64,000 nucleotides of DNA from an uncultured Verrucomicrobiota bacterium (GCA_903845125.1 CAIMWS010000344.1:24290-88289); one strand, 5' to 3'; counted from the stretch's first letter, positions 34,966 through 52,429 are shown. Program-made: numbers and translations. The notes: generated from the letters alone by a model not told the origin.

Positions 34966-35783
34966 GCTGCGCGGAATTGGACCTGGAGGATCTGGCCCCG
35001 GGGGGATTGGACCCCGCCCGCCGATCCCGGGTCCGGATCGCCTCCCGTACGGGTCGTTACCTCAAAGCCGGTCCCATCAAGGCCGGGGAGCACGGCTTTG
35101 ACCTCGCCTGGGCTGCCACTTTGCGCGCCTCCGCGCTGCGCCGCGTGGTCGAATCAAGCTTGGATTCCCGGGTAATCCGGGCCGATTGGCGTAAAAAATT
35201 GCGCTATCGGACGTGCGACCGCCTTCTGGTGTTCGTGGTGGATGCCTCGGATTCCATGGCCACCCGTTTGCACCAAAGGCTCCGGGCTGCCAAAGGAGCC
35301 GTCCTGGCCATGTTGCACCAAGCCTATCAAAAACGGAATCAGGTGGCTTTGGTGGCCTTCGGCGGGGAACGCGCCACCGTGGTTTTACCCCCCACCCATA
35401 GCATCCACCTGGCCAGGGAACGGCTGGCGTGGCTGCTAGCAGGCGGTGCCACCCCGCTCGCCATGGGCCTGTTCACATCCTGGCAACTTATTCGCAATGA
35501 AAGGCTTAAACACCCGGAAATCAAACCTACCCTCATCCTGCTCTCGGATGGGGAAGCCAACGTTCCCCTGATTCCGGGCAATCCCCCCTGGGTTGAAGTC
35601 CTGAATCTGGCCGGCCAAATTCGCCAGGACCAAGTGTCCTCGGTGGTTGTGGATGTGGCGAACCGTTGGCATAAATCACCGGTTTTGGATAAACTCGCCG
35701 CCGCACTCGGTTCCCGGCAAATTCATTTGGCGGAAATCAAAGCGAAATATATCGTTAAAGCTGTCGCCGATGTCGCCTTTTAA
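34929..35783 (+). CDS. von Willebrand factor A (vWA) domain region, ChlD C-terminal-like; start unresolved (no ATG) and probably expressed as a fusion with 33793..34929
   Basis: In the -1 frame relative to the ChlI-like ORF: ...RRSRVRIASRTGRYLK...LLVFVVDASDSMA (MIDAS DxSxS)...VALVAFGGERATVVLPPT...GGATPLAMGL...ILLSDGEANV. There is no in-frame ATG between 34266 and the MIDAS motif. The track ORF upstream of 34929 overlaps the ChlI frame and looks non-coding. Confidence 0.7.
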   Translation, partial: ELETAIQPDLQISCAELDLEDLAPGGLDPARRSRVRIASRTGRYLKAGPIKAGEHGFDLAWAATLRASALRRVVESSLDSRVIRADWRKKLRYRTCDRLLVFVVDASDSMATRLHQRLRAAKGAVLAMLHQAYQKRNQVALVAFGGERATVVLPPTHSIHLARERLAWLLAGGATPLAMGLFTSWQLIRNERLKHPEIKPTLILLSDGEANVPLIPGNPPWVEVLNLAGQIRQDQVSSVVVDVANRWHKSPVLDKLAAALGSRQIHLAEIKAKYIVKAVADVAF

Positions 35784-35985
35784 AGTTACCCCAATGAACT
35801 ATTTGAAAGTTACTTGCGATCCGGCTTGGTCGCAGATAGGATATGGGCAGGTGGTCTAACTGGGCAGGGGGCCGGGAAATTTTGAAAAATGCCGTAAAAA
35901 GTTAAATATCCGGTTGACATCCTCGTCTCAGTGCTTAGACTTGGCGCAAAGTGTTTGTGGAAACTGTACCTATTGGATTAAAATT

Positions 35986-36798
35986 ATGAAACGCGAGAGA
36001 AGCCTTTTTCTGAAATGGGCAGCTTATGGCGCCGCTCTTTTTATTGCGTCAGCAGCCATAACTGCCGAAGCTCAAAGCAAGTCCGGGTCCGCCAAAGTTC
36101 AGTCTGTCCGGGGAACCGCACAATTTCAAGAGGCGGGTGGCCAGTGGGCGAATCTAACCGTGGGTAAAATCCTCGGGCCCGGAGCCGTGATCAAAACCGC
36201 CCTGGGCTCCGTCGTGGATCTCTATTTGAAGCAAAACGGGCCGGTGGTGCGGGTAACTGAAGATACCACCCTTTCCCTTGAAAAACTGCTTTATGATGAA
36301 ACCGCCGATGGCGCCGTGATTCAAACCTTGCTCGACCTCAAAAACGGCCGGATTCTGGGGAACGTAAAGAAATTGGCTTCTGCCTCCAAATACGAGGTTA
36401 AGATTCCTACGGGCACGGTTGGTATTCGTGGCACTACTTACGACATCAGCACCCGGGGTATCGTGCATGTGTTCCAAGGCTCGGTCTTGATCACCTTGAC
36501 GGGTGCCAACGGAGTAGTTACGTGGAGTGGCACCGTGAACGCGGGTCAGACCTTCACCGCCGGTGTTGCCGGTGCCCCGCCGACCGTCGGTCCCACCCCC
36601 ACCGGGGTAACCCAGCAGGGAACTGTCTTCCGGGATGTGGTGAACACAATTTTGACGGACAATGGTGAAACCATCACGGTAACACCCACGACTCCCACTG
36701 GGACTCCGACCGGCGAGACCACGACGCCTCCCGACCAAAATCCGCCGAACCCGCCGACGTCACCCATCAGCCCTGGTGGCAATCCGCCGCCCCAGTAA
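35986..36798 (+). CDS. secreted FecR-domain protein with Thr/Pro-rich tail
   Basis: ATG 35986 gives MKRERSLFLKWAAYGAALFIASAAITAEA. The FecR-like beta segment is VRGTAQFQEAGGQWANLTVGKILGPGAVIKT...VKIPTGTVGIRGTTYDI. The C-terminal tail is TPTTPTGTPTGETTTPPDQNPPNPPTSP. Confidence 0.75.
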   Translation: MKRERSLFLKWAAYGAALFIASAAITAEAQSKSGSAKVQSVRGTAQFQEAGGQWANLTVGKILGPGAVIKTALGSVVDLYLKQNGPVVRVTEDTTLSLEKLLYDETADGAVIQTLLDLKNGRILGNVKKLASASKYEVKIPTGTVGIRGTTYDISTRGIVHVFQGSVLITLTGANGVVTWSGTVNAGQTFTAGVAGAPPTVGPTPTGVTQQGTVFRDVVNTILTDNGETITVTPTTPTGTPTGETTTPPDQNPPNPPTSPISPGGNPPPQ

Positions 36799-36829
36799 AT
36801 GAAAACCGGTTAGGTAGAGTTTTTAAACG

Positions 36830-36864
36830 AAACCCAGAGTGGTGCCAAACCGCTCTGGGTTTTT
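36830..36864 (+). terminator. Rho-independent terminator-like hairpin between the FecR gene and the cyclase gene
   Basis: AAACCCAGAG (36830-36839) pairs with CTCTGGGTTT (36853-36862) across a structured 13-nt loop and runs into TTTTT (36860-36864). The cyclase ATG is at 36871. Confidence 0.6.
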
Positions 36865-36870
36865 GGCTTC

Positions 36871-39438
36871 ATGGGTGAAAAAACCAAAACTGTGCGGATC
36901 AACCTGCCTTGGGTGATGACCCTGGTGGTGGTGGGCGTCCTGGTGGTTTTGCAGGTCATAGCCCATTACTGGCCCGGTTTTTTCATCAATCAGCTCGATA
37001 ATATCAGTTACGATTGGCGGGTGCAGATTGCGAGCAAGCATTCCCCGCCACTGTCCACTAACCTGGCGGTGGTGGCTGTGGATGAGCTCACCCGCGATTG
37101 GTTAGGCAAAGGAGAATTAAAAGAGGGAACGACGGGCACCGTTTTCCGGGCGGATTGGCCGTATCCAAGACATTTGCATGGCCGTATTGTTCGTGAGTTG
37201 AAGGCCCAGGGCGCCCATGCGGTGGCTTTTGACGTTATGTTCGCCGAGCGTCACCCTGATAATCCCGCGGTGCCAATGCCTTTGGCTGACGCCTCCAAAC
37301 TCGGTTTTTCCCCGGCCGAAATCGAAAAACTCACACCGATTCCCTACTCGCCCATTGTTCCCCAAAAACAGCCCGATACCCCCGAGGTGAATAAGGTGCC
37401 GGATATTCCCGGGGTGAGCGTGGAATCCGATGAATTTTTCGCCATCGCCAATCGCCAGGCCGGCAACGTGATCCTGGCGGCCAATTCTGCGGAAAACGTG
37501 GTTCCGGATCTCCTTTTTCGGACCAATGCGGCGGGGATCGCCGATATTTCCTCCTTTCCGGACGGGGATGGTATTTTGCGCCGTATCAAACCATTCACGG
37601 ACATTCCCATTTGGGAACCCACTCTTAAACAAGTCGTGGAAAATGAAGGTTTTCAGACTTCGAATTACGACATAAAAACCAACCAGATCGTTTTCACCCA
37701 TGTGGAGGCGGGCAAAACCAACCGGTTGGTCGTGCCTATTGGCCAGGATGGCAACTACTGCCTCAAGGATTTTTACCGGGTGGATCTCCAGCCATTGAGC
37801 GCGGACCAGCGCCAGGCAGCGGAAGCCATGCTGGCGCGCCGGGCCAAACCGTACACGATGCAACGGGTATGGAATATGGGGATAGTCTTGGGCGCCCAAT
37901 TCCTTGGCTTGGACTTGGATCGTGCCCAGGCTGATCCGGCGGGCAAACTATTTTTGCCCGGAACCAATGGCGTGAACCGGGTGTTGCCCTTGGACCGCCA
38001 GGGTTTTGTGCTGGTGGATTGGTTAACTTCCCGCGACACGGATTTGCCCCGGATGTCTTACGGCCTGGTCTTGCAATTCGACGCGATCCGCAATAGCACC
38101 AACGCGAGCCTGATTTTCAGCAACGTCTTCCAGCAATTAAAAAAAGACGGCCTCTTGAGCCTCCCCGACGACAAACCGTTAAAAGGCAAGCTGGTGGTCA
38201 TTGGGTCTGTGCTATCCGGCAGCAATGTGCGCGATCAGGGGCCAACCCCTTTGGGCGCAAGCACCCTTTACGTCAGCTGCCACTGGAACGTTGCCGATTC
38301 GCTGATCCGCGGCCGGTTTATACGCCAATTCCCGTTGCCGGTGCTGCTCCTGTTGATCATCCTGCCGGCCCTGGCTTCCGCCTGGCTCACCTATAATTTA
38401 CGCGCGCTGGCAGCCTTCAGCAGCGTGATGCTGATCATCGCGGCCTACTTTGGCGTGGGCGTGCTGGCTTACACCTGGCTGCGCTGGCGGTTGCCGATGG
38501 CCATGCCGGTATTGGGCGGGCTGCTGATGACCCATGTCTGCACCATTACCCACCGGGTTGTAAGGGAGCAGAAAGAACGGCGCCGCATTAAATCCATTTT
38601 TGAAAAAGTGGTTTCCCCCAACGTAGTGGACGAACTGCTGAGCGCGGAATCCCTGGCCTTGGGCGGGGCGCGGCGCGAAGTCACCGTGCTTTTTTCCGAT
38701 GTGCGCGGCTTCACGGAAATGACCGACCAAAGCCAGGCCCGGGCCGATGATTATGTGCGCGAGCGGAACCTCAGCAACCGCGAGGCGGCCGAGGTTTATG
38801 ACGAGCAGGCGCGCGAAGTGCTGGCCACTGTAAACCTGTTTCTCACGACGGTGGTGGGGCACGTCATCAATAATCGAGGCACCTTTGACAAATACATCGG
38901 CGATTGTGTGATGGCTTTCTGGGGGGCGCCTACCTCCAACCCCCGCCATGCGGTTGATGCCGTCCGCGCCGCCATCGCGGCCCAGCGCGCCATGCACCGG
39001 CTCAATCTCGACCGCGAAGCCGAAAACCAGCGGCGGCAGCAGGAAAACACGGTCCGCGTCGCCAAGGGCCAGCCGCCCCTGCCTTCGCTCGCGGTGCTCT
39101 CCTTGGGCACCGGCATCAATACCGGAACGGTCACTGCCGGTCTGATGGGCTCGGACCAGACCCAGGTGAATTACACCGTGTTCGGCCGGGAGGTGAACCT
39201 GGCCAGCCGCCTGGAGGGCGTTTCCGGCCGGGGGCGCATCATCATCAGCGCCACCACCTTTGCTTCCCTGCAGGCGGAGAATCCGGAATTGGCCAGCAGC
39301 TGTATGCCGTTGGTGCCGGTGCATGTCAAAGGCTTCCTTAAACCGGTCCCGGTTTACGAGGTTCCCTGGCGCGGGGAGGCAGCGCCCGCCTTGCCGGCGC
39401 CGGCCGCGGGCGAAACCGCCCCCCCCGCCAAAACGTAA
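36871..39438 (+). CDS. CHASE2-sensor class III adenylate/guanylate cyclase
   Basis: 855 aa. The N-terminal TM is VMTLVVVGVLVVLQVIAHYW, followed by a large extracytoplasmic CHASE2-like region, three further TM segments and the cyclase homology domain (VTVLFSDVRGFTEMTD, FDKYIGDCVMAFWGAP, GINTGTVTAGLMGS, YTVFGREVNLASRLEG). Confidence 0.85.
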   Translation: MGEKTKTVRINLPWVMTLVVVGVLVVLQVIAHYWPGFFINQLDNISYDWRVQIASKHSPPLSTNLAVVAVDELTRDWLGKGELKEGTTGTVFRADWPYPRHLHGRIVRELKAQGAHAVAFDVMFAERHPDNPAVPMPLADASKLGFSPAEIEKLTPIPYSPIVPQKQPDTPEVNKVPDIPGVSVESDEFFAIANRQAGNVILAANSAENVVPDLLFRTNAAGIADISSFPDGDGILRRIKPFTDIPIWEPTLKQVVENEGFQTSNYDIKTNQIVFTHVEAGKTNRLVVPIGQDGNYCLKDFYRVDLQPLSADQRQAAEAMLARRAKPYTMQRVWNMGIVLGAQFLGLDLDRAQADPAGKLFLPGTNGVNRVLPLDRQGFVLVDWLTSRDTDLPRMSYGLVLQFDAIRNSTNASLIFSNVFQQLKKDGLLSLPDDKPLKGKLVVIGSVLSGSNVRDQGPTPLGASTLYVSCHWNVADSLIRGRFIRQFPLPVLLLLIILPALASAWLTYNLRALAAFSSVMLIIAAYFGVGVLAYTWLRWRLPMAMPVLGGLLMTHVCTITHRVVREQKERRRIKSIFEKVVSPNVVDELLSAESLALGGARREVTVLFSDVRGFTEMTDQSQARADDYVRERNLSNREAAEVYDEQAREVLATVNLFLTTVVGHVINNRGTFDKYIGDCVMAFWGAPTSNPRHAVDAVRAAIAAQRAMHRLNLDREAENQRRQQENTVRVAKGQPPLPSLAVLSLGTGINTGTVTAGLMGSDQTQVNYTVFGREVNLASRLEGVSGRGRIIISATTFASLQAENPELASSCMPLVPVHVKGFLKPVPVYEVPWRGEAAPALPAPAAGETAPPAKT

Positions 39439-39814
39439 AGCAGCCGTCACCCGTCTCGCTTCAAGGTTGCGCCAGTCCGTGGAAAACCATCCTGCAATGG
39501 GCCTTTGAGCATACCCACGTTTTTGTATTGGAATCGGGGAGGTTTGGAACCTTCCCGCCAATGCCCCGGAAAGTTACGTCCCAACCGCAGGCAATTCCAA
39601 CTTGGAAAGAAATGCCGACCCGCGCACTCCAAAACCGGGCGGAGACCGGAACAAGCCGAATGCGATGCGAGCCACGGAGGGTGCGTGAGCTTTTGGATTG
39701 CGGCGCCGGGGCACCGCTTTGGATTCCTGGCTGGTTGCTGGCGGTTGGCCACCCACTGGCCAAAAGGCCGCCATTGCCTTGGCCACGGTTTCTGCTTTCC
39801 CTTTTCTGTATGTT

Positions 39815-39836
39815 CCACGGAATCCGTGGTTTATTT
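39815..39836 (+). terminator. short terminator-like hairpin in a 520-nt convergent spacer
   Basis: CCACGG aat CCGTGG is followed by TTTATTT. It lies 377 nt after the cyclase stop. Confidence 0.4.
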
Positions 39837-39958
39837 CCATATTTTGCCGCTTTTTGCCGACCTTCCCTGGTCAACGCGGACAGCCAACCAAATGGAGGGG
39901 GTTGGTGGTTCCCAAAAGTGTAGCTGTTGGCTGGGCGATCCGGGCGATTTTCCACCGG

Positions 39959-41539
39959 CTAGGGCTGTGCCGGTTCATGGAAAGCCTCCACTTGATAGGT
40001 TTGCACCCGCGCGCCCGGTTGGCGCCAGGCGCCCGCTTCGCAGCCGGCTTTGAGCGCCAGCGAGTCGAGAAACCCGGTTTTATCAGGTATCTGGCTCCAC
40101 ACCTGCGGCAGGTAGGTGGCACCCCGCCCGCCGATCTGCAGCAGCACACCGTCCACTCCAGGCCGCAGCTTGGCCAGCAGATCCGCGGGGGAACTGAATA
40201 CGAGCGGCTTGGGTTCGGTGAGCACGCTGATTTCGATGCGCAACCCCCCGGTTTCCCCAGCCTTCACCGGTGGGAATCGCGGATCGCGCAGGGCGGCGTT
40301 GCGCGCGTTCTCCATGATCGCCAGGTAAAGTGGTTGCTGGGGCAGGATGTGGCCGATGCAACCGCGCAACTCACCCCGGCTGGTCAGCGTGACAAAGCAT
40401 CCTTTAGGCTCCCGCAGCCGGGCCGGAATACTTTCCGGGGCCGGCTCCTGGAGGGAGCCGCCGGCGGCCACTTCCACGAGGGTTTTGCGAGCCAGTTCCA
40501 GCAACCGTTTTTGGTCGTCCGCCGAATAAGTCGGGGTTTCCTGGCTGAAGAAGGCGATCGCTGCATACCCCACCACGGAGTGCCCATCGCCGGACACTTC
40601 GCCGCTGTGCCGGTATTGCAGCAGCACCGGCTGCCAGTGGCGCAGGCGGGCCAGATGGAGCAGGGCCAGCACCGGCCCCTTGCCGCAGGCCTCCTGGGCG
40701 GCCATCTGTTCCACGTCCAAATCCAGGATGGCTTTAAGGCAGCGTTGGTCCAGGCTTTTGGCTTCACCCGCCGGATGATAATGGCTCAAATCCGTGCTGG
40801 CCACAACCAGGGCCGAGCCATCCATGTAGTTGGCCAATGTCTTCGCCACCGCCTCCGGAGATACTTCCCCGAAAATGACCGGCGCCAGCTGGAAACGGGG
40901 CAGCACGCGTTGCAGGAAGGGCACCTGGACCTCGGTTGCGTGCTCCCAGGTGTCGGGCGTCTCCTCACCCGGCGGCGGCGCCGCTTTGGGAGATTCCCGC
41001 TGCCAGGCCGGCCGCTGCACCCGGCCTTTCGGCTCGCCGACAAACGGGGGCAGTTTGGTCAATTCCTGGAGCACAGGCGACAACTCCACCAAGCCCAGGG
41101 GGGTACGATAGGCGTTCGCTGAAGGGATGAACGCTCCCTCAAAGGCCGCGTAATGGCTGGGCGACAGCAGGAATACGGTCTGGAAATCCCGTCCTTGGGC
41201 CAGCTTGTAGCCCCAGGCGACCGTCGCGCCCGAATAGCGGTAGCCCGCGTGCGGGCAAATCAAAGCCCGCAGCTGCCCGGTGGTTCCCCCCGGTGCGGCC
41301 GCCAGGTATTCATCGATGGTCCGGGAAAGCTCGGCCCGGTCCAGCGGGTAAAACAGGCCCGCCACGGCCGGTTCCCGGATCCGCAGGCCGCGGGATTTGG
41401 CCGCCTCCAGCGGGGCGGTTTCAGCCGCGCGGTTGCGGGGTTGGGAATCCAGGCGGGCGAATCCGGCAGCGAGGAGGATGGAAGCCCCCAACACCCCGCC
41501 CAGCAGCGCGGAGCCCAGCCAGCCGGATTGTTGTTTCAT
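39959..41539 (-). CDS. fusion of Memo-like (AmmeMemoRadiSam system protein B) and AMMECR1 (protein A) domains with N-terminal hydrophobic anchor
   Basis: ATG 41539 is preceded by gaggaaaagg (track start 41566 is TTG). The anchor is MKQQSGWLGSALLGGVLGASILLAAGF. The Memo region is AGLFYPLDRAEL...ALICPHAGYRYSG...LLSPSH. The AMMECR1 region is GCFVTLTSRGELRGCIGHI...NAALRDPRFPPV. Confidence 0.85.
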   Translation of the reverse strand: MKQQSGWLGSALLGGVLGASILLAAGFARLDSQPRNRAAETAPLEAAKSRGLRIREPAVAGLFYPLDRAELSRTIDEYLAAAPGGTTGQLRALICPHAGYRYSGATVAWGYKLAQGRDFQTVFLLSPSHYAAFEGAFIPSANAYRTPLGLVELSPVLQELTKLPPFVGEPKGRVQRPAWQRESPKAAPPPGEETPDTWEHATEVQVPFLQRVLPRFQLAPVIFGEVSPEAVAKTLANYMDGSALVVASTDLSHYHPAGEAKSLDQRCLKAILDLDVEQMAAQEACGKGPVLALLHLARLRHWQPVLLQYRHSGEVSGDGHSVVGYAAIAFFSQETPTYSADDQKRLLELARKTLVEVAAGGSLQEPAPESIPARLREPKGCFVTLTSRGELRGCIGHILPQQPLYLAIMENARNAALRDPRFPPVKAGETGGLRIEISVLTEPKPLVFSSPADLLAKLRPGVDGVLLQIGGRGATYLPQVWSQIPDKTGFLDSLALKAGCEAGAWRQPGARVQTYQVEAFHEPAQP

Positions 41540-41562
41540 GGCAGTACCTTTTCCTCGCGGCG

Positions 41563-42582
41563 TCAACCGGCGCCGGGTGGTTTGACGTCGGCAAAAATGA
41601 TAACCCCCGCGCTGGTCTGCAGCAAACTCAAAACCGTGGCTTCCACCTGCTGCCCGACGAGGTGCTGCGCCTGGTTGACCACCACCATGGTGCCATCCTG
41701 CATATATCCTACTCCCTGGCCTTTGTCCTTGCCTTCACGCACAACCTTAAGGTTCAAGACCTCGCCCGGCAGAGTTACCGGCTTGAGCGCCACCGTCAGT
41801 TCGTGGAGGTTGACGTGGTTGACCGATTGGAGCGAGGCGATCTTGCTCAGGTTGTAATCGGTGGTGTAGAGCTTGGCGTTGAGCATGCGGGCCAGCCGGA
41901 TCAGCTTGGCGTCCACTTCGGTTTCGTTGAGGATGTCGCTCTCGTGGATTTTGACCTCGTTTTTCGTGTTGCGCTGGATCCGGTTGAGCATATCCAGCCC
42001 ACGGCGGCCCCGGGCGCGTTTGATGGGATCCTTTGAGTCGGCGATTTGCTGCAGCTCCTTCAACACGAAGCGCGGCACCACCACGACCCCTTCCACAAAC
42101 CGGGCCTCGATCAGGTCCGCCACCCGGCCGTCAATAATGGCGCTCGTATCCAACAGGAGCAGGTTGTCCGGCCGGTTTTGGGAGGAGAAGCGCACGAACG
42201 GAATGATCAGGTAAAAATCCTCCTTGTTGCTGCGCATGGCCAGTATCATGCCGATGTAGCCAAAAAAGACGAAAACGCTCAGGCGGATGATCCATTGGAC
42301 CGGCTGGTCGGCGAACATGAACAGCTTGGAATTGTCGATCATCCACGCGATCAAGGTGCCCAGCACCAGGCCGAACGTGGCGGCCGAGAAGGCCCGCAAC
42401 GAAAAGCCCTTGAGCATTTCGTCCAGAGCAATCATCAGGCCGCCAAAGCCAAAGCCGATGCCAATGCCGGCGAGGGGCCCGCCGTGGATTATAACCGGTT
42501 GTACCTCCTCAATCGCATAACCGCCGGTGATGCATAACAGTAAAAAAAATATCCGCAATACCCAAATTCCGCCCGTGGCCAT
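41563..42582 (-). CDS. membrane-anchored PIN/TRAM-domain protein (YacL-like)
   Basis: There are four N-terminal TM segments. The PIN region is LLLLDTSAIIDGRVADLIEARFVEGVVVVPRFVLKELQ...LYTTDYNL. The C-terminal TRAM-like region is PGEVLNLKVVREGKDKGQGVGYMQDGTMVVV. The ATG directly abuts the TAA of the upstream gene. Confidence 0.8.
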   Translation of the reverse strand: MATGGIWVLRIFFLLLCITGGYAIEEVQPVIIHGGPLAGIGIGFGFGGLMIALDEMLKGFSLRAFSAATFGLVLGTLIAWMIDNSKLFMFADQPVQWIIRLSVFVFFGYIGMILAMRSNKEDFYLIIPFVRFSSQNRPDNLLLLDTSAIIDGRVADLIEARFVEGVVVVPRFVLKELQQIADSKDPIKRARGRRGLDMLNRIQRNTKNEVKIHESDILNETEVDAKLIRLARMLNAKLYTTDYNLSKIASLQSVNHVNLHELTVALKPVTLPGEVLNLKVVREGKDKGQGVGYMQDGTMVVVNQAQHLVGQQVEATVLSLLQTSAGVIIFADVKPPGAG

Positions 42583-43572
42583 TTACTTCCCTTTCTGTGC
42601 GCCCGGGTCAGTCCATCCTCGCGGCTTGTATGGCAGCCCGTGCTGGTTTATGTTCCTGCTTAACAAGGTTAAATTACTCACCAGCAAAGTAAAGTTCGAT
42701 TGCCACATCTGGTTGGTCAGCAGGCTCGCCACCACCCCCTCGCCGCCCACCAGGCTGCCCAGCAGCTGGCGCGTGTTCTGGCTGGACAAATCGAGGTTGG
42801 TGACGATGGACTCGATCTCTGGTCGGTGGTTGCGCAGCAGTTCCTCCAGCTGGGAGGCGATATACACCCCTTTGCTCGACAGCGGTGGCAGGTTGCTGAT
42901 CGCCAGGTTCAGCGCGTTGCTGTTGACGGTGATGAGGCCATCCACCTTGTCCAGGGCCAGCGGCACCTTGGCCGTCAGCACCGCGGCGTTGCTGACAATG
43001 GTGGTCAACCCCTCGAGGTTTTGGGTGGTGACCAGCATGTGGTCGATCCGCTTGACCACCCCGGTCACGCTGTTCAAAACCCCGCCGAAATCCTTGATGA
43101 GGTCCATCACGTTGCGCGCAGCGTCCTGGATGTTGAACACGCCCCGGCAATTCTTCACGACGTGGCCGGTGGTCAGCGGGCTGGTCACCACGCCATCGGC
43201 CGGCGGTTTGATCAGGATGTAGCTCTCCCCCAGGATGCCGGCAAAATCAATCGAGAATTCGTATTCGGGATAGAGGGGATACTTCCGGTTGTCATACTTG
43301 ATGGAGATCACCACGGCCTGGTCCTTCCACTCGAAATCCTGCACGAAGCCGATCCGGCACCCGGAAAGGCGCACATCCGCCCCGCGCTTCAGGTCGCCGC
43401 AATCCGTGGTGCGCAGCGAGATGGTGGCCATGCCCCAGGAAAAGACATTTTCTTTGCCGGCGAAGACCAGGATCAGGATGCCAGTCACAAACAGGCCGAA
43501 CAGCATGAAGAAGCCCACCCGAAAGGCGTGGGATTGGTCCGATTTTTGATGGTGCAGGGTGCCAGATTCCAT
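42583..43572 (-). CDS. MlaD/MCE-domain protein (third MCE protein of the operon)
   Basis: ATG 43572 gives MESGTLHHQKSDQSHAFRVGFFMLFGLFVTGILILVF (TM). The MCE-like beta domain is LKRGADVRLSGCRIGFVQDF...VVISIKYD.... It has a long helical C-terminus. Confidence 0.75.
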   Translation of the reverse strand: MESGTLHHQKSDQSHAFRVGFFMLFGLFVTGILILVFAGKENVFSWGMATISLRTTDCGDLKRGADVRLSGCRIGFVQDFEWKDQAVVISIKYDNRKYPLYPEYEFSIDFAGILGESYILIKPPADGVVTSPLTTGHVVKNCRGVFNIQDAARNVMDLIKDFGGVLNSVTGVVKRIDHMLVTTQNLEGLTTIVSNAAVLTAKVPLALDKVDGLITVNSNALNLAISNLPPLSSKGVYIASQLEELLRNHRPEIESIVTNLDLSSQNTRQLLGSLVGGEGVVASLLTNQMWQSNFTLLVSNLTLLSRNINQHGLPYKPRGWTDPGAQKGK

Positions 43573-43576
43573 AGGT

Positions 43577-44389
43577 TTACTCGTTTTCTTCTTTATATCG
43601 CCGCAAATATTCCAGGATTTCAGGCTGGTTGGAGGACAGGAATTCCTCCACGGTCCCGTCGAAAATAAGGTTGCTCGCCGCCGGATCCCGGCAATCCTCC
43701 GGCTGCACACCCTTCAGCATCAGCACCCGGTTGCGGATCCGCTTCAGGGTCCGCACGTCGTGGGTGATCACGATCGAAGTGGGCTTCTTTTTCTCCCAGA
43801 CCCGCAGGATCAGGTCGTCGATCACGTTGGAATAGACCGGATCCAGCTCGGAGGTGGGTTCGTCATAGAGCAGGATCTTGGGCGAGGCCACAATGGCCCG
43901 GGCCAGGCCCACCCGCTTGCGCATTCCCCCGGAAAGCTCCGCCGGCTTTTTGTCGTGGTCGCGGACATCCTCCAGCCCCACCATGGCCAGGGCCTCCACG
44001 GCGAGTTGATCGATCTCCGCCGGCGCCAGCAGCCCCTCCCGCTGCAGCCGGAAGCTCACGTTGCCCTTGACCGTCAAGTAATCGATCAACGCCCCCCCCT
44101 GGAAGAGCACGCCGAAATTCTTCTGCACCTCCAGCAGCTCGCGGTCATCGAGTTCCCCGAGGCTTTTATCGGCGATCCGCACCTCGCCGTGGTCCGGTCT
44201 CTCCAGGCCCACCAGGTGGCGCAGCAGCACGCTTTTGCCGCAGCCGCTGTTGCCGACGATGGCCAGGATTTCCCCCGGGCGCACGTTGAAGGAGACCTGG
44301 TGCAGCACCGGTTTGGCGCCGAACGCTTTCGTCAGGCGGTCGACGGCTAGGTTGTGGCAGGCAAAAGGTGCGGGTCCGGTCATGGCCAT
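43577..44389 (-). CDS. ABC transporter ATP-binding protein (MlaF-like)
   Basis: Walker A is GNSGCGKSVLLRHL, the signature is LSGGMRKRVGLARAI and Walker B is ILLYDEPTSELD. It has a ~50-aa C-terminal extension. Confidence 0.9.
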   Translation of the reverse strand: MAMTGPAPFACHNLAVDRLTKAFGAKPVLHQVSFNVRPGEILAIVGNSGCGKSVLLRHLVGLERPDHGEVRIADKSLGELDDRELLEVQKNFGVLFQGGALIDYLTVKGNVSFRLQREGLLAPAEIDQLAVEALAMVGLEDVRDHDKKPAELSGGMRKRVGLARAIVASPKILLYDEPTSELDPVYSNVIDDLILRVWEKKKPTSIVITHDVRTLKRIRNRVLMLKGVQPEDCRDPAASNLIFDGTVEEFLSSNQPEILEYLRRYKEENE

Positions 44390-44395
44390 AAGCGC

Positions 44396-45157
44396 TTAAA
44401 ACACGTTGACGAGGTTCTTGAGGCACAGGGTCAGGAAAAAATTCGAGATCAGGATCGCGATCGAGGCGGTGACCACCGATTCGGTGGTGGATATGCCCAC
44501 CCCCTCAGCGCTTTTTTCGCAATGCATTCCTTTGTAGCAGCTGATCGAGGAGATCAAGGCCCCGAAGAAAACCGACTTGATGAAGCCGATCAATACGTGG
44601 CCCATGTGGGTGTAGCGGATCATGTTGTAGTAGGCGTAGAAAAAGTTCATGCCCAGGATCGCCGATCCTGCCACAAAGCCGGCGATGATCCCCAGGGAAA
44701 TCGATTCCGCCACCAGGATGGGGGAGACGGCCATGGTGGCCACCACGCGGGGTGCCACCAGGTAATCGAAAGGATGGGTGCCCAAGGTGCGGAGCGCGTC
44801 GATCTGGTGGTTGGCGTTCATGGTCCCCAAGTGGGCCGTGATGGACGCCCCCACCCGGCCAGCCATCATCAGGGCTGTCAGCACCGGGCCCAGTTCAGTG
44901 CACATGGCCACCCCCACGACTGCCATGGAGGCGCTCTCCATCTTCAGCTTCTCGAATTGCAGGTAGGTCTGCGCGCAGAGCACCATGCCGGTGAACGCTC
45001 CGGTGATCATGATCACCGACTGGGATTTGACCCCCAGGTGGAACATCTGCTTGATGATCTCGGTTTTTTCGCGGGCGAGTTTGAGATGGAAAAAGGAGCT
45101 GAAGATCTGCCTCACAAAGATCATCAATTTCCCCAGTTCGACAATCATGGTCCTCAT
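44396..45157 (-). CDS. ABC transporter permease (MlaE family)
   Basis: 253 aa. Typical MlaE segments are ITGAFTGMVLCAQTY, ELGPVLTALMMAGRVGASITA, ANHQIDALRTLGTHP and LVAPRVVA. Confidence 0.9.
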   Translation of the reverse strand: MRTMIVELGKLMIFVRQIFSSFFHLKLAREKTEIIKQMFHLGVKSQSVIMITGAFTGMVLCAQTYLQFEKLKMESASMAVVGVAMCTELGPVLTALMMAGRVGASITAHLGTMNANHQIDALRTLGTHPFDYLVAPRVVATMAVSPILVAESISLGIIAGFVAGSAILGMNFFYAYYNMIRYTHMGHVLIGFIKSVFFGALISSISCYKGMHCEKSAEGVGISTTESVVTASIAILISNFFLTLCLKNLVNVF

Positions 45158-46191
45158 GGTTTGGATTTTCGGTTCTCCTTCAGTTCGGGATTGAATGCCA
45201 GGCCAAACTGGGTCATCCGCGCGTTAAAACACTGCAGCTGGCGGCTCATGAATTTGAACTCGCTCCGGAATGGTTTGTTGTACATAAACAGGCCCGCCAG
45301 GCCGCGGCCCGTGCGCAGGGATTTCCGCGCCTGCGCCAGCAAAAGCTCGCCCTGGCCCAAACTGCGCTGGATGGAGTCCACCGCCTCCTTGACCGGTTCC
45401 GCCAGGCTCTGGAATTCCCGGGCCACCAGGGCCAGGTGGTTGGTCAGCCGCCGGTAATTTTCCAGCGTGGCTTGCACGTGGGCTTCATTGGCCTGCCCCA
45501 CCTCCGAGGCATGCGCCTTTAATTCACCCAACTCCCCACCGATCCGCTCCAGGTTGGTTTTGATCAGGCTGGCATCCCGGGTGACCTGCGGCGACGCCAG
45601 CGTGGCGCTGACCTTGCGCGTGGTGATGCCCAGCAGTTTCCCGGCCTGGCTGAAGCCTGCCAGGTAGCCGGAGACCTCCCCGAAGATATTGCCCATCTCC
45701 AGCGACGCCTGCCCATAAACATTGTCGCTGTTCTTCAGGAATGCCTTGGGCACCCGCGGGGGGCTGATCGACACCACCTGGTCCGCCAGCAAATTGACCT
45801 TGTCGATCGAAAATATGGCATTGGTGGGGATCAGGATGCGGCCGGCGGTGTCGAATGGATCCTGGATGACGGTGATGCCCACGAGGTTGTTGGTCTGGTT
45901 CGCCGCGGGGATCCGGCAGTATTTCTTGAAGATCCGCAGGCGGATGACCGCCCGGGGCTGGGCGGTGTTCTGCACCGGCTGGATGTGCTCCACCCGCCCC
46001 ACCATCACGCCGCCGAACATGACCGGCGAATGCCGGGTGATGCCGCCGGTGTTGGAGGTGATGAAAGCCAGTTCGTAATTGGCGGAGGCCGACAGGTAAG
46101 TGGTGTAGCCCACTGAAACCGCCACGATGATCAGGCAGGCCACCATGAAGTTGGCGCTGAAAAACCAGCGCCTGGACTGTTCACCGGCCAT
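45154..46191 (-). CDS. MlaD/MCE-domain protein (second)
   Basis: ATG 46191 gives MAGEQSRRWFFSANFMVACLIIVAVSVGY (TM). The MCE-like region is ITRHSPVMFGGVMVGRVEHIQPV...VIRLRI. It has a long helical C-terminus. ATGA overlap with mlaE-like start. Confidence 0.75.
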   Translation of the reverse strand: MAGEQSRRWFFSANFMVACLIIVAVSVGYTTYLSASANYELAFITSNTGGITRHSPVMFGGVMVGRVEHIQPVQNTAQPRAVIRLRIFKKYCRIPAANQTNNLVGITVIQDPFDTAGRILIPTNAIFSIDKVNLLADQVVSISPPRVPKAFLKNSDNVYGQASLEMGNIFGEVSGYLAGFSQAGKLLGITTRKVSATLASPQVTRDASLIKTNLERIGGELGELKAHASEVGQANEAHVQATLENYRRLTNHLALVAREFQSLAEPVKEAVDSIQRSLGQGELLLAQARKSLRTGRGLAGLFMYNKPFRSEFKFMSRQLQCFNARMTQFGLAFNPELKENRKSKP

Positions 46192-47149
46192 GGCAATCCT
46201 TGCATTCGGATTTGGGTTTTTGCCGCCCCGCCAGGAAGTTTTCCACACCGGCCACCGAGCTGCGCAGGCGGTCCTCCCATTGCTGGCGGTTAGTGATGTC
46301 GCACGCCAGCGTTCGCAAAGCCTCCGAAGCCGCCACCTTGCGGGTGGTTTCCAGGACGCTCACGGCCAGGTTGGAAGCGCCGCCCACCGGTTGGTCGATC
46401 CGCTCCCACTGGCCGCCCGCCAGCTGGTTGGACAGGGAGGCGACCGTTTTCGGAAGTCCGCTAATGGTGGCGGTGAGATTGGATCCGTGGGCATCGGGCC
46501 AGGCCAGCCATTGTTCCGCCTGGTGGAAGGCCCCGGTGGGGCTGGACCAATGCTTGATCATGCCGGAGATGGCTGCAATGGATTGGGTGGACACCAGGGG
46601 GATTTTTTCGATGGATTCCGGGGCCCACTGGTTGGTGCTTTTCCGGTAGCGATGCAGCGCTTCATTGATCCGGCGTCCCATGTCCGAAAAGCTCACCGGC
46701 TCGAGGCAGGGGACCGTTTCGGCATCCACCAGCAGGCGCGATCCCATGTGGCCGGGGGTCACGTTGACCACCTGGTCTCCCAGCAACCCTTCCGGCAGCA
46801 CCGCAAACGCCGAGTTGGCCCCAATGTCAAACTGCCGTTCGATTTTCACCTTGATCTGGATGCGGTTTTGGATCTCGTTCCAGATCAGGCGGTCCACCCA
46901 GCCAATTTTGACGCCCGATAAACGGACCTCGGATCGGGCCGGGACCAGCGTGCCGGCATTGGCCGTCTGCAGGTTCAGTTCGTAGGTGTCGAAATTATAA
47001 TGGGCCGGATTGGTGAAAAACCAGGCGAGCGCGATGATCAGGCTGAAACCGAAAATCCCAAACGCCAGCACTGCCCGCGTGAAGGCGGCCAGGCTTGGCG
47101 GCTTCGCTCCGGCCGCCCTTTGGATTTGAGTCGCCGGCCTCAAAATCAT
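46181..47149 (-). CDS. MlaD/MCE-domain protein (first)
   Basis: The TM is AFTRAVLAFGIFGFSLIIALAWFF. The MCE-like region is LVPARSEVRLSGVKIGWVDRLIWNEIQNRIQIKVKIE. It overlaps the next MCE gene by 11 nt. Confidence 0.75.
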   Translation of the reverse strand: MILRPATQIQRAAGAKPPSLAAFTRAVLAFGIFGFSLIIALAWFFTNPAHYNFDTYELNLQTANAGTLVPARSEVRLSGVKIGWVDRLIWNEIQNRIQIKVKIERQFDIGANSAFAVLPEGLLGDQVVNVTPGHMGSRLLVDAETVPCLEPVSFSDMGRRINEALHRYRKSTNQWAPESIEKIPLVSTQSIAAISGMIKHWSSPTGAFHQAEQWLAWPDAHGSNLTATISGLPKTVASLSNQLAGGQWERIDQPVGGASNLAVSVLETTRKVAASEALRTLACDITNRQQWEDRLRSSVAGVENFLAGRQKPKSECKDCHGR

Positions 47150-47329
47150 GAATGGATCCGTTTGCCCATGGTTTGCCTTTGGCTCAGCTGTTTCCAGCCC
47201 TTACGACTAGCAAAAAGCCTGGGTTCAAGCAAGCAAAAGCCGGACCCTGTCCAAAGCCGGCCCCGGCAGTGAGGACGGCCGGGGACCCGTCAGGGGGTGG
47301 CTGAACCGGGCCGATCCTGCACAAGGCTG

Positions 47330-47348
47330 GTTCCGGAATTTCCGGAAC
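47330..47348. promoter_or_regulatory. perfect 19-bp palindrome GTTCCGGAA-T-TTCCGGAAC in a divergent intergenic region; candidate operator
   Basis: Read directly. It lies in the ~490-nt spacer between the Mce operon start (47149, minus) and the thioredoxin-fold gene start (47644, plus). Confidence 0.35.
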
Positions 47349-47643
47349 TTCAGCAGCGGGGTAGGGCAGGGGAACCGCGCTTGCGGCCCGCATTGAAGCC
47401 TGCGGCGATCGAATCCTCCCCCTGCAGCCACCGTTCGAACTCCCCCGGCTTGGCTGAGGCCAAGCATTTGAGGTGGAATTGATTGCGCCGCAGATGGTGG
47501 GCCCAGCCGGGGGGAGCGAACCGCGGCCATATTTGAACCGGTCGGCAAGCGGTGGATGATGAAGGTCTGGCGCAAGTAGATACAGCCGGCACGGACAATA
47601 CTGCGGTTGCCAATCGTTCCCGGAGGCAGTAAGTTGCCACGCA

Positions 47644-48252
47644 ATGAATGCACGGCTTTGGCTGATGGCCTTGGTGGTTTTGCTGGGCGCTCCGGAGAGC
47701 CGGGCGTTTGTGCATGCCCGGATCGGCAGTGTCATTGAAAATGCTGAAATGAAGGCGCTGGCGGGTGGCACGCAACCGCTCCTCTCCAACGCCACCGCCA
47801 ATGTTTTCATTTTTTTCAAGCCCGGGCAGGAGAATTCGCGCCGGGCGCTGGCCAGTTTGGCCGCCTGCCAGAAGGAATTGACCGGCAAATCCATCCGCTG
47901 GGTGGCCGTGGTTTCGGACCGGTTTTCCAAGCTGGAGGTGGAAAAGGAAGTGAAAGCGGCTGGGATCTCCATGCCGATCCTGGTGGATGCCGCGGATGTC
48001 CTGTATGGCCGGCTCGGTGTGGTGCTTTGTCCCGTCGTGGGCATTACGGATCAGGATCATAAACTGGCGGCTTATGAACCTTTCCGGAAGGTCAACTTCC
48101 AGGAAATCATCCGCGCGCGCATCCGTTTTTTGCTCAGGGAAATTAATTCCCGGGAGCTGGAGCGGGTGATTAAACCGCCTCGCGCCACCCAGAACGCCCA
48201 GGCTGGGAAACGGGACCAGCCGGGAGCGGATCGAGCCATCCCTGGGGCTTGA
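47644..48252 (+). CDS. secreted thioredoxin-fold (TlpA/redoxin-like) protein lacking the CxxC motif
   Basis: Signal peptide is MNARLWLMALVVLLGAPESRA. The redoxin-like layout is VFIFFKPGQENSRRAL (where CxxC would sit) ...SIRWVAVVSD...ISMPILVDAADVLYGRLGV...PVVGITDQDHKL. The overlapping minus ORF 47184..48044 is rejected. Confidence 0.6.
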   Translation: MNARLWLMALVVLLGAPESRAFVHARIGSVIENAEMKALAGGTQPLLSNATANVFIFFKPGQENSRRALASLAACQKELTGKSIRWVAVVSDRFSKLEVEKEVKAAGISMPILVDAADVLYGRLGVVLCPVVGITDQDHKLAAYEPFRKVNFQEIIRARIRFLLREINSRELERVIKPPRATQNAQAGKRDQPGADRAIPGA

Positions 48253-48317
48253 GGCCCCAGCAACAACCGGAAGTTTTTATCCCAAATTAAACAACCTCAA
48301 CCAAACAAACCTACACA

Positions 48318-49130
48318 GTGAACCAAAAACATACCTGCCTCAGAACCAGTTTGCTCATCGCCACCCTCGGGGTCATCAGCTCCACCGGGCCCTCCAGCGC
48401 GGATGCCGCCCAGGAAAAACCGGCTGCCCCGGCCACGCAGGCCGCCGGCCAGCCCGCCGCCAGCGCCGCCCAAGGCTTCCCCAGCAGCCAGGGTTTCAGC
48501 GGCAAAGTCGTGGAAACGATGAATGCCGCCAGCTACACCTATGTGCTGGTGGACACCGGCAGTAAAAAGCTGTGGGCGGCGGCGCCCCAGTTCCAGGTGA
48601 AGGTGGGGGATGCCATCACCATTGAAGGCGGCCTGCCGATGGAGAAATACCACAGCAAGACTTTGAACCGCGAGTTCGAGGTGGTTTATTTTACCGGCCG
48701 CGCCCTGGTGGGCGGCGCCCAGGCCAGCGCCGCCTTGCCCAGCGCCAGCCTTCCGGAAGGCCATCCCCCCCTGACCGGCGCCGCGGCGCCGGCGGCCAAA
48801 ATCGACTTCGCCGGCCTCAAGAAGGCCGCCGGGGGCAAAACCGTTTCGGAAATTTACGCCGTCCGGCCCAAGCTCGCCGGCCAGAAAGTGGCTGTGCGCG
48901 GGAAAGTGGTGAAGTACAACGCCATGATCATGGGCAAGAACTGGCTCCATTTGCAGGACGGCACCGGCACCCCGGGCAGCAATGATCTCACCGTCACCAC
49001 CGTTTCCGAGGCCAAGGTGGGCAACACGATCGTGGCCACCGGTACTATCGCTATCGATAAGGATTTCGGCGCCGGCTACAAATTCAGCGTGATCCTCGAA
49101 GACGCGAAGGTGGTGGTGGAACCGAAATAG
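48318..49130 (+). CDS. secreted protein with two OB-fold-like repeats
   Basis: GTG start at 48318 with signal-like LRTSLLIATLGVISSTGPSSADA and an A/P/Q-rich linker. The two similar halves are GKVVETMNAASYTYVLVDTG...VKVGDAITIEG and VAVRGKVVKYNAMIMGKNWLHLQDGTG...AKVGNTIVATG. Confidence 0.6.
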   Translation: MNQKHTCLRTSLLIATLGVISSTGPSSADAAQEKPAAPATQAAGQPAASAAQGFPSSQGFSGKVVETMNAASYTYVLVDTGSKKLWAAAPQFQVKVGDAITIEGGLPMEKYHSKTLNREFEVVYFTGRALVGGAQASAALPSASLPEGHPPLTGAAAPAAKIDFAGLKKAAGGKTVSEIYAVRPKLAGQKVAVRGKVVKYNAMIMGKNWLHLQDGTGTPGSNDLTVTTVSEAKVGNTIVATGTIAIDKDFGAGYKFSVILEDAKVVVEPK

Positions 49131-49205
49131 CCCGCCTGGCGGACTCAACGGTGCCCCTGACGGCTCAGTTTTTCCGCCCGGCCGGATAATCCGCTGGCAG
49201 CGAGG

Positions 49206-50309
49206 TTACTTGGGATTGCCCAGGAATTCCGGCAGATGGAATTCCTTGCCCTCGACGATGTGATCGATGGCGCTGGTAACCTGCGGGCTGGATATGGCCT
49301 GGATGCGCGCTGGCGGATAACCGATGGAGGCGAAATCCACCAGGCTCCCTTGCGCCCGGTGGCAGTCCGTGCAGTGCAACGTGGGATTGCGCCGCTGCGG
49401 GTGAATCTGCTGAAGCAGCTGTTTTTTCTGCTCTTCACCCAGGGCATTGCGCTGGCTCAGAAAATCCCGCACCGCCGATTCATTTCCGGTATTCCTTAAG
49501 AACGGCTTCCGGGCGCCGGCCTCCAGCAAGGCCAGCTTGGCGCCATATTCTCCACGGAAATGCCCTTGGACTGCATCGCGGGTCACCTTGACCAGGCGGC
49601 GGAATTCATCGCTGGTGACGCGAACCGCCGCCAGGTGCTCCGCCAGGGCGGAGAGCTCGGTTTCCCCGTGGGCCTCGGTGGAGGCGGCCCGGAGCAGCCG
49701 CACGATGCCGGCCTGGTCCTGCACCGTGAAATTCGTGGCGCCGCGCGTGGCCGGGCTCGTCAGCCATTCAAAAGCCCGCAGCAAGGATGGGGCTTCAGTG
49801 AGCGTCTTGCCCGACTTCAAATCATACCAGGCCAGCGCCAGTGGTTTCTGGTCCGTACGCACATGGCACACTCCGCAATGCAGGCTGGTGGCGTGCATGT
49901 TCAGGAAGGCCCGGTCGGCCTTGTTCTTGCCGTGCGGCAGGGGATCGTGGCATTGGCTGATGGTGCACCCGTTCAGCCGGTCGCTCTGGAAGCCTTCGTC
50001 CAACCGGTGATAATGAGAGAGCGGGCTGCGCCGGTTCGCGGCGGTGGTTCCCGCCGCGGCGGCGGTTTCCGGGCGCAGCAGGACCGATTCGCTGAGCCGG
50101 GTGGGAACGTCCGTGATCCGGGCGGGCGGGCGGGCGGGCAGCATCAAGGAGGAAATGAGATAATAGCAGGCCTGGCCGCTCAGGCCGAGGATGATCGTGA
50201 TCAGCAGCAAAGCGTAACAGCGTTTGCCCAGGCCCCAGAGCAGCCGGCCCGCCAGCGCCAGGGCGCCGCCGGTCTTCCCCGGATTGTTGGATCCAGCGTC
50301 GTGGCTCAT
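49206..50309 (-). CDS. membrane-anchored c-type cytochrome (two CxxCH plus one Cx4CH motif)
   Basis: The TM is CYALLLITIILGLSGQACYYLISSL. Motifs are CTISQCH (Cx4CH), CGVCH and CTDCH. ATGA overlap with the upstream multihaem/cyt b gene. Confidence 0.75.
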   Translation of the reverse strand: MSHDAGSNNPGKTGGALALAGRLLWGLGKRCYALLLITIILGLSGQACYYLISSLMLPARPPARITDVPTRLSESVLLRPETAAAAGTTAANRRSPLSHYHRLDEGFQSDRLNGCTISQCHDPLPHGKNKADRAFLNMHATSLHCGVCHVRTDQKPLALAWYDLKSGKTLTEAPSLLRAFEWLTSPATRGATNFTVQDQAGIVRLLRAASTEAHGETELSALAEHLAAVRVTSDEFRRLVKVTRDAVQGHFRGEYGAKLALLEAGARKPFLRNTGNESAVRDFLSQRNALGEEQKKQLLQQIHPQRRNPTLHCTDCHRAQGSLVDFASIGYPPARIQAISSPQVTSAIDHIVEGKEFHLPEFLGNPK

Positions 50310-52246: not shown

Positions 52247-52429
52247 TCGGGAGATGCTTTATTCGCTTGGAAAGAGGCACAGAGCATTTTCTGGTGCATG
52301 GTCTGAATTTTTAACTGGCGGCTTTTCCGCGTCAAGCCTCGTCTTCAAGTCCGCCCGAGGCGGGGGTGGGCTTTTCACCCGCAAGAATTTTGCTGTTCCC
52401 GGCGGGCTGGAAAACCGTAACGTGGAAGG

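Follow-up and report, generated by a model that had tools for sequence, protein, structure and literature searches.

We analysed a window of 64,000 nucleotides (nt) from an uncultured Verrucomicrobiota bacterium (CAIMWS010000344.1), which at positions 39959-47149 carries seven closely spaced genes on the minus strand. They encode three MCE proteins (MCE1, MCE2 and MCE3), an MlaE-family permease, an MlaF-type ATPase, a membrane protein with PIN and TRAM domains, and a fusion of Memo and AMMECR1 domains. MCE transporters shuttle lipids between bacterial membranes, and to our knowledge little has been established about their accessory factors beyond Proteobacteria and Actinobacteria. All parts of the unit belong to known families; what appears to be new is the conserved coupling of an MCE gene to a PIN/TRAM gene of the COG4956 family, which is unreported in the literature searched. 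As judged from gene order in related genomes, the linkage between PIN/TRAM and MCE genes is real and clade-wide. The unit as a whole is probably composite: a clade-wide core, mlaE-mlaF-mce-PIN/TRAM, to which an expansion of MCE genes and a Memo-AMMECR1 gene would have been added in the source species only.

Linkage of mce and PIN/TRAM genes

An alignment of PIN/TRAM homologues served to scan one genome per GTDB species. For the 80 highest-ranking loci, 10 kb of sequence on either side was searched by tblastn for the seven proteins of the window, and MCE genes were counted with a profile built from strong members only. In 65 of the 72 loci with 1 kb or more of sequence upstream, the gene immediately before PIN/TRAM encodes an MCE protein; these loci come from Verrucomicrobiota and from metagenome-assembled genomes (MAGs) labelled as Omnitrophota. 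Where the upstream sequence is long enough to judge (67 loci), 54 show the full order mlaE-mlaF-mce-PIN/TRAM, and an orthologue of the ATPase occupies the MlaF position in 56 of 67 related loci. The stop codon of the MCE gene and the start codon of the PIN/TRAM gene form an ATGA overlap in 21 of 69 loci, and the distance between them is from -4 to +6 nt in about 45 of 69. The preliminary description, made from the window alone, had recognised the PIN/TRAM gene beside the transporter genes as an unfamiliar association, and its link to MlaE, MlaF and MCE indeed extends beyond the source genome.

The block is also present in low-GC MAGs labelled as Omnitrophota and in two labelled Planctomycetia; the latter labels are not trusted. 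In all these MAGs the PIN/TRAM proteins are 44-47% and the MlaE proteins 37-40% identical to those of the window. The outer neighbours differ between groups. The Omnitrophota-type loci have ClpC upstream, and IspD follows directly downstream of PIN/TRAM (approximately 1 kb; L066-L080). In most Verrucomicrobiota, PIN/TRAM is followed by a small DUF2007-like gene and a gene encoding a GlcD-like FAD oxidase. ClpC, accompanied in some loci by McsB, lies upstream of mlaE, approximately 4-6 kb before PIN/TRAM, at L003, L010, L018, L060, L066, L067, L070-L072 and L080. At L068 (7586-10993), a locus labelled Chthoniobacterales, the order is triosephosphate isomerase, HAD hydrolase, mce, PIN/TRAM, and mlaE and mlaF are absent. 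Since the pair is retained both in the Omnitrophota-type loci, where the outer neighbours have changed, and at L068 without mlaEF, mce-PIN/TRAM is the most persistent element of the block. The usual neighbours of PIN/TRAM are absent from the 64-kb window (tblastn); the mce3-PIN/TRAM junction there is still 0 nt.

One locus, L006 (8942-11005), looked like a fusion of MCE and PIN/TRAM genes. This candidate was rejected, as the frame simply reads through a stop-free spacer of approximately 150 nt (about 50 codons), and the PIN domain of a fused protein would land on the wrong side of the membrane. The read-through probably reflects a lost stop codon or a sequencing error, and the locus was counted as an adjacency, among the 65. 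A number of MAGs labelled Bifidobacteriaceae, Methylomirabilota, Saccharimonadales, Acidoferrum and so on (among them L012, L033, L040, L061, L064, L065 and L069) carry PIN/TRAM genes that are 66-70% identical to that of the window, in the gene order typical of Verrucomicrobiota; the taxonomy given for these bins is clearly not reliable.

A literature search found no report of MCE-PIN/TRAM linkage; the search was incomplete, and this is only absence of evidence.

The seven-gene unit

The closest genome record is a MAG of an uncultured Verrucomicrobiota bacterium (L001, CAYPCQ010000025.1), which is about 95% identical to the window at the DNA level across the operon. It is the GTDB representative of the source species and carries the same gene order. 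The genes of the unit are listed below in the order of transcription, with protein lengths in amino acids (aa) and with the ratio of nonsynonymous to synonymous substitution rates (dN/dS) relative to L001.

46181-47149, minus strand: MCE1, 322 aa, first gene of the unit; dN/dS 0.29
45154-46191, minus strand: MCE2, 345 aa counted from the ATG; dN/dS 0.22
44396-45157, minus strand: MlaE permease, 253 aa; dN/dS 0.03
43577-44389, minus strand: MlaF ATPase, 270 aa; dN/dS 0.27
42583-43572, minus strand: MCE3, 329 aa counted from the ATG; dN/dS 0.10
41563-42582, minus strand: PIN/TRAM protein, 339 aa; dN/dS 0.017
39959-41539, minus strand: Memo-AMMECR1 fusion, 526 aa counted from the ATG, last gene of the unit; dN/dS 0.16

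With values between 0.017 and 0.29, all seven genes are under purifying selection. The open reading frame (ORF) calls, the reading of the sequence itself and the Pfam matches bear out the gene positions, junctions and domain assignments that had been proposed for this region. As read from the sequence, MCE1 and MCE2 overlap by 11 nt, and MCE2 and MlaE share an ATGA overlap. The gaps between MlaE and MlaF and between MlaF and MCE3 are 6 and 4 nt respectively, and the TAA stop codon of MCE3 is directly followed by the ATG of PIN/TRAM. The 23-nt gap between PIN/TRAM and Memo-AMMECR1 contains a motif resembling a ribosome-binding site, GAGGAAAAGG.

The unit is bounded upstream by a divergent gene, across a gap of 494 nt, and downstream by a convergent gene, across a gap of 520 nt, and thus consists of exactly these seven genes. 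Promoter-like and terminator-like sites show no excess over shuffled sequence in the region 39000-48500, and nothing convincing was observed inside the unit. Given the gaps of at most 23 nt and the lack of such excess, the parsimonious reading is that the seven genes form one transcription unit. No RNA family was found by an Rfam scan of the whole window, and thus the flanking gaps are not explained by a riboswitch or a small RNA. Nor do the PIN/TRAM protein, the Memo fusion or the three MCE proteins match any PADLOC model at an E-value of 0.01 or lower, so they show no membership of an anti-phage defence system.

The PIN/TRAM protein

The product of the sixth gene has Pfam matches to PIN (E-value 1.5e-6) and TRAM (1.8e-5) and, by hydropathy, four hydrophobic segments. 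The AlphaFold model consists of four transmembrane (TM) helices, a PIN domain and a TRAM barrel. This architecture, with the four TM helices at the N-terminus, is that of the widespread PIN.COG4956, or YacL-type, family. The E. coli protein that is also named YacL we take to be unrelated. The PIN domain matches that of Thermus TTHA0540 (PDB 3IX7) both in sequence (hmmsearch E-value 9e-34) and in structure (Foldseek E-value 2e-11, 43% identity, target-normalised TM-score 0.92). The acidic residues D145, E176 and D242 of the PIN domain are invariant in all 76 sequences compared; D224 is aspartate in 74 and glutamate in 2. As the acidic residues of the active site are conserved, the protein is likely to be an active nuclease. 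A survey of PIN domains lists PIN.COG4956, with its TRAM domain and four TM helices, as a family of unknown function, and describes its genomic context as unlike that of the toxin-antitoxin PIN proteins (Matelska et al. 2017, PMC5499597).

Loci without MCE neighbours

Not all members of the family have an MCE gene next to them. The MCE neighbour is missing in Verrucomicrobiota at L011, L027 (where MetRS is upstream), L042 and L056, at the more distant loci L075 and L076, and at L079, which has HtrA upstream and IspD downstream. A second PIN/TRAM clade was collected from metagenome contigs; the query alignment was headed by the L079 protein, to which the members of the clade are 49-66% identical. 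None of its 80 loci has MlaE, MlaF or MCE beside PIN/TRAM (tblastn and MCE profile), and the count of MCE or Mla neighbours is likewise 0 of 55 among the loci with at least 1 kb of upstream sequence. IspD occurs within approximately 3 kb downstream in about 50 of the 80 loci, and the upstream genes include HtrA, RadA, CarD, Der and a zinc dehydrogenase. In Bacillus, the neighbourhood of radA-disA-yacL presumably extends to clpC upstream and ispD downstream. The position of yacL downstream of radA and disA in Bacillus subtilis is documented (PMC6755099). The flanks of the clpC/ispD type resemble this order in B. subtilis and suggest a very old neighbourhood. The family would then sit in an old housekeeping neighbourhood, which the Mla/MCE block, by the gene orders compared here, appears to adjoin only in the branch formed by Omnitrophota and the Planctomycetes-Verrucomicrobia-Chlamydiae (PVC) group. 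As the family occurs without MCE neighbours in the second clade, in several Verrucomicrobiota and in Bacillus, the basic function of the PIN/TRAM protein cannot depend on MCE proteins.

These observations weigh against a functional reading of the coupling, and several others have to be set beside them. Within Verrucomicrobiota, the DUF2007-like and GlcD-like genes are found next to PIN/TRAM about as often as the MCE gene is (47-50 loci), and so the MCE-PIN/TRAM adjacency there could in part be inherited gene order. Disruption of TTHA0540 in Thermus caused no significant change in global mRNA levels (PMC4229858). The single-operon reading of the seven genes is drawn from their spacing, and any hetero-oligomerisation of the MCE proteins, as well as any contact between the PIN/TRAM protein and the transporter, would be a prediction from the sequences.

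The main alternative is that the adjacency reflects inherited gene order without any functional link, an mlaEF-mce block having been inserted into a clpC/radA...yacL-ispD neighbourhood in an ancestor of the PVC/Omnitrophota branch and never broken up. The ClpC and IspD flanks of the Omnitrophota-type loci, ClpC/McsB upstream in some Verrucomicrobiota, IspD downstream with RadA, CarD or HtrA upstream in the second clade, and the B. subtilis order all fit this explanation. However, the mce/PIN/TRAM junction is usually an overlap or a few nucleotides; the pair persists without mlaEF (L068) and where both outer neighbours have changed; and the source species has kept the junction at 0 nt, although the surrounding neighbourhood is wholly rearranged. 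We consider inheritance alone possible but the less probable explanation, and grant it this much weight because functionally unrelated downstream genes are about as well conserved within Verrucomicrobiota.

The transporter genes

The MlaE protein matches Pfam MlaE (PF02405) over its full length (E-value 1e-66) and scores 210.3 bits with TIGR00056, just below the cutoff of 212.2. The MlaF protein matches ABC_tran (PF00005; 2e-33). With an MlaE-family permease, an adjoining ABC ATPase and membrane-anchored MCE (PF02470) proteins, the unit encodes an Mla/MCE-type ABC transporter in the broad sense.

Each MCE protein has one N-terminal hydrophobic segment by hydropathy (TM segments at residues 27-45 of MCE1 and 10-28 of MCE2) and a Pfam MlaD/MCE domain (MCE1, residues 55-133, E-value 5e-11; MCE2, residues 38-145, 8e-9; MCE3, 2e-9); in MCE2 the domain contains an insertion. 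In the AlphaFold model of MCE3, residues 13-38 form a TM helix and residues 48-143 a beta-barrel (per-block model confidence, pLDDT, mostly above 90), followed by helices at 148-311, approximately 165 helical residues. The C-terminal tail of MCE1 is about 190 aa long, and the tails of the three proteins are similar in length (about 165-200 aa). Those of MCE1 and MCE2 align nearly from end to end with their counterparts in the conserved verrucomicrobial MCE family.

By position, MCE3 is the orthologue of the one conserved MCE gene that relatives carry in front of PIN/TRAM. MCE1 and MCE2 have no such counterparts. An exhaustive search of 1.84 billion representative proteins with MCE1 returned the protein itself and weak matches to the MCE domain (at most 37% identity, E-value at least 3e-14), and a word-indexed search of 5.8 billion protein clusters with MCE2 returned nothing beyond the cluster of its own species. 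The two proteins are 20-35% identical to the single conserved verrucomicrobial MCE protein over most of their length, and MCE2 aligns with that family over its full length at 20-23% identity. From these alignments the best reading is that both are duplicates of the single conserved gene, either old or fast-diverged. Among the 80 species-level loci, more than one MCE gene within 10 kb of PIN/TRAM is found in the source species only. The arrangement that had been noted in the window, with two MCE genes before the permease and ATPase genes and a third after them, is thus correct for this DNA; as a feature of a wider group it does not hold.

The retained genes have changed as well. In genome pairs of equal PIN/TRAM divergence the median identities of MCE orthologues are 39-49%, but MCE3 reaches only approximately 26%; MlaE reaches approximately 55% against an expected value of about 70% (55-70 orthologous loci). 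By these identities the transporter genes (42583-45157) form a long branch in the source lineage relative to the PIN/TRAM gene. As MCE1 and MCE2 have diverged, and the identities of MCE3 and MlaE are below expectation, it appears that the whole transporter was remodelled in this lineage while PIN/TRAM stayed conservative.

This remodelling, together with the overlapping junctions and similar tail lengths, is consistent with the conversion of a homo-hexameric MCE ring into a mixed one. A hetero-oligomeric ring of three MCE proteins is plausible from the sequences, although it is not a conserved design. Alternatively, MCE1 and MCE2 may stand outside a mixed ring, either forming separate rings that alternate on one MlaFE motor or being redundant duplicates on the way to loss. 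In favour of this alternative, they evolve faster than MCE3 and lack orthologues elsewhere. On the other hand, dN/dS is far below 1 in both and their reading frames are intact in all strains seen; the MCE1/MCE2 and MCE2/MlaE overlaps suggest stoichiometric co-translation; the tails are of similar length; MlaE and MCE3 have diverged in concert; and the Mce1A-F heterohexamer provides a precedent for mixing (PMC9882608). We regard separate rings or gene loss as possible but less probable.

The Memo-AMMECR1 fusion

The last gene of the unit encodes a protein with an N-terminal hydrophobic segment (hydropathy) and Pfam matches to Memo (E-value 1e-46) and AMMECR1 (2e-44). Both halves exceed the NCBIfam cutoffs, with 218.7 bits against 26 for TIGR04336 (protein B) and 186.8 against 99 for TIGR04335 (protein A). 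The fusion is common in Verrucomicrobiota, with at least 120 matches of 53-95% identity, all but the closest being 53-60% identical. In three relatives represented by long contigs, the next gene encodes a large membrane protein similar to spermidine synthases; in two of them (L087, L088) a small ORF, a TIGR04337 radical SAM gene (326-333 bits) and a gene for a DUF2339 protein come after it. No Mla, MCE or PIN/TRAM gene is found beside the fusion in these three relatives, and their partner genes, including the radical SAM gene, were not found in the window (tblastn).

In the survey, the fusion follows PIN/TRAM in 1 of the 80 loci, which is that of the source species. The preliminary description had proposed Memo-AMMECR1 as part of a module with the transporter and had named lack of conservation beyond this genome as the outcome that would speak against it; this is what we observe, and the proposed link is not supported. 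On comparison of gene orders, the Memo link is a local rearrangement, an accident of gene order. As the fusion has replaced the usual downstream neighbours of PIN/TRAM and is itself split from its own partners, it is most likely a passenger in the operon rather than a functional arm of the transporter. The tight junctions, including the 23-nt gap with its ribosome-binding-like motif, the purifying selection on all seven genes and an arrangement that is stable over several metagenome samples of the species would agree with a single module, in which a three-subunit MCE ring is joined to an RNA or modification arm of PIN/TRAM and Memo-AMMECR1; such a module is nevertheless very improbable, given the single locus in 80, the different company that the fusion keeps elsewhere, a same-species contig (L084) that diverges inside the Memo gene, and three MCE genes that are likewise unique to the species.

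Strain variation and flanking regions

All seven genes are found in identical order on another contig, L081, and four more metagenome contigs contain parts of the order, cut at contig ends. Synteny with L001 ends 115 nt upstream of the start codon of MCE1 (window position 47264), and the sequence beyond differs between strains; the loss of synteny marks the 5' edge of the operon as a rearrangement breakpoint.

On the other side, the 520-nt gap between the Memo-AMMECR1 gene and the CHASE2 cyclase gene (39439-39958) is absent from L001, where only about 73 nt separate the genes, and it differs in L085 too. It contains the palindrome CCACGGAATCCGTGG at 39815-39829. A search of this gap for repeats indicative of a mobile element found none; its sequence is unique in the window and has no Rfam match. 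The contig L084 is 100% identical to the window from 43577 to 41321 and then diverges within the Memo gene. Past the point of divergence (L084, 2258-4308) a 75-aa ORF is left, followed by a 551-aa ORF on the opposite strand that has no Pfam match. The contig represents a strain variant or insertion, or else its assembly is chimeric.

Downstream of the unit there is a plus-strand cluster (34246-39438) encoding a VWA-domain protein, a FecR-domain protein and the CHASE2 adenylate/guanylate cyclase (855 aa, 36871-39438, plus strand). The upstream region, at approximately 49200-52500, encodes a 367-aa protein for which no Pfam match is recorded and one of 646 aa whose matches, to a Ni-hydrogenase cytochrome b family and to an MtrC/MtrF domain, are only weak or faint.

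Proposed function

The core of the unit would be an MCE-type ABC lipid transporter formed by the MlaE permease, the MlaF ATPase and an MCE protein anchored in the inner membrane. By analogy with solved MCE systems, the MCE beta-barrel and the long helical tail are expected to build a hexameric tunnel through the periplasm. In the PVC/Omnitrophota branch, the mce gene is followed by a gene, usually translationally coupled, for a YacL-type protein that would have a membrane anchor, a cytoplasmic PIN domain and a TRAM domain. This arrangement most likely signifies obligatory co-expression of a predicted inner-membrane RNase with an envelope lipid transporter, and the PIN/TRAM protein may be an accessory or regulatory partner of the transporter at the inner membrane.

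In the source lineage, two fast-evolving MCE paralogues appear to have been added before mlaE, with MlaE and MCE3 diverging concurrently, and a homo-hexameric ring may thereby have been remodelled into a mixed one, for example of 2:2:2 composition. Memo-AMMECR1 would have been moved next to PIN/TRAM by a local rearrangement that displaced the usual downstream neighbours; it is irrelevant to the question of the transporter and the PIN/TRAM protein.

A stronger version of this scheme, which we consider unlikely, is that the PIN/TRAM protein is a genuine partner of the MCE transporter, its anchor docking on the membrane assembly of MlaE and MCE and its nuclease tying the state of lipid transport to cleavage of specific RNAs, while the same motor drives an independently evolved heteromeric needle of three subunits. 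If it were true, the COG4956 family, listed as of unknown function and elsewhere found beside ispD, a gene of isoprenoid lipid synthesis, would gain a role in the homeostasis of envelope lipids, and the source species would have a minimal three-subunit MCE needle, independent of the six-subunit needle of mycobacteria. A mixed ring by itself, if it forms, would offer a simpler natural model of heteromeric assembly than the six-gene mycobacterial systems, although the arrangement of three MCE genes is known from a single uncultured species. For both families, the translationally coupled pairing of MCE and PIN/TRAM genes across the clade is a testable lead.

Comparison with known systems

The Memo-AMMECR1 protein resembles the AmmeMemoRadiSam system in that protein B (Memo-like) and protein A (AMMECR1-like), both scoring above their cutoffs, are fused. 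It differs in its surroundings, as the radical SAM partner was not found in the 64-kb window, whereas it belongs to the same cluster in two of the three relatives.

The PIN/TRAM protein has the four N-terminal TM helices, PIN domain and TRAM domain of YacL-type proteins such as TTHA0540 (3IX7) and YacL of B. subtilis. Its gene is coupled to an MCE gene in the source species and in most of its PVC/Omnitrophota relatives, a context missing from the second clade and from Bacillus.

The transporter is similar to the Mla core (MlaFE and MlaD): one MlaE-family permease, one ABC ATPase and a single-pass MCE protein are encoded together. The 'ancestral MlaEFD core' was described by Grasekamp et al. 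(2023), who also reported PVC MlaD proteins with a long helical C-terminal extension and no beta-barrel (PMC10665443), and the long helical extensions of the window MCE proteins are like those of these MlaD sequences. Unlike the Mla core, the unit has three MCE genes instead of one, and the third of these is translationally coupled to a PIN/TRAM gene. It falls short of Mla in the strict sense at the equivalog level, as all three MCE proteins score 47-50 bits with TIGR04430 MlaD (cutoff 135) and the permease 165.5 bits with NF033619 MlaE (cutoff 315). No STAS (MlaB), MlaC or MlaA domains were found by Pfam among the seven proteins.

An operon that combines permease and ATPase genes with genes for several distinct MCE proteins, each with a single MCE domain and a helical tail, is also characteristic of the actinobacterial Mce systems. 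There, the Mce1A-F heterohexamer with YrbE1A/B is a solved example of a mixed MCE hexamer with a needle (PMC9882608, PMC10517005; also discussed in PMC10665443 and PMC12436622). However, the window has three MCE genes rather than six and one permease gene rather than two, and its MCE genes flank the permease and ATPase genes on both sides. The scores with TIGR00996 (45-46 bits, cutoff 140.5) place the proteins outside the actinobacterial family. Since the three paralogues apparently derive from the single-MCE family of Verrucomicrobiota, their expansion would be independent of the actinobacterial one.

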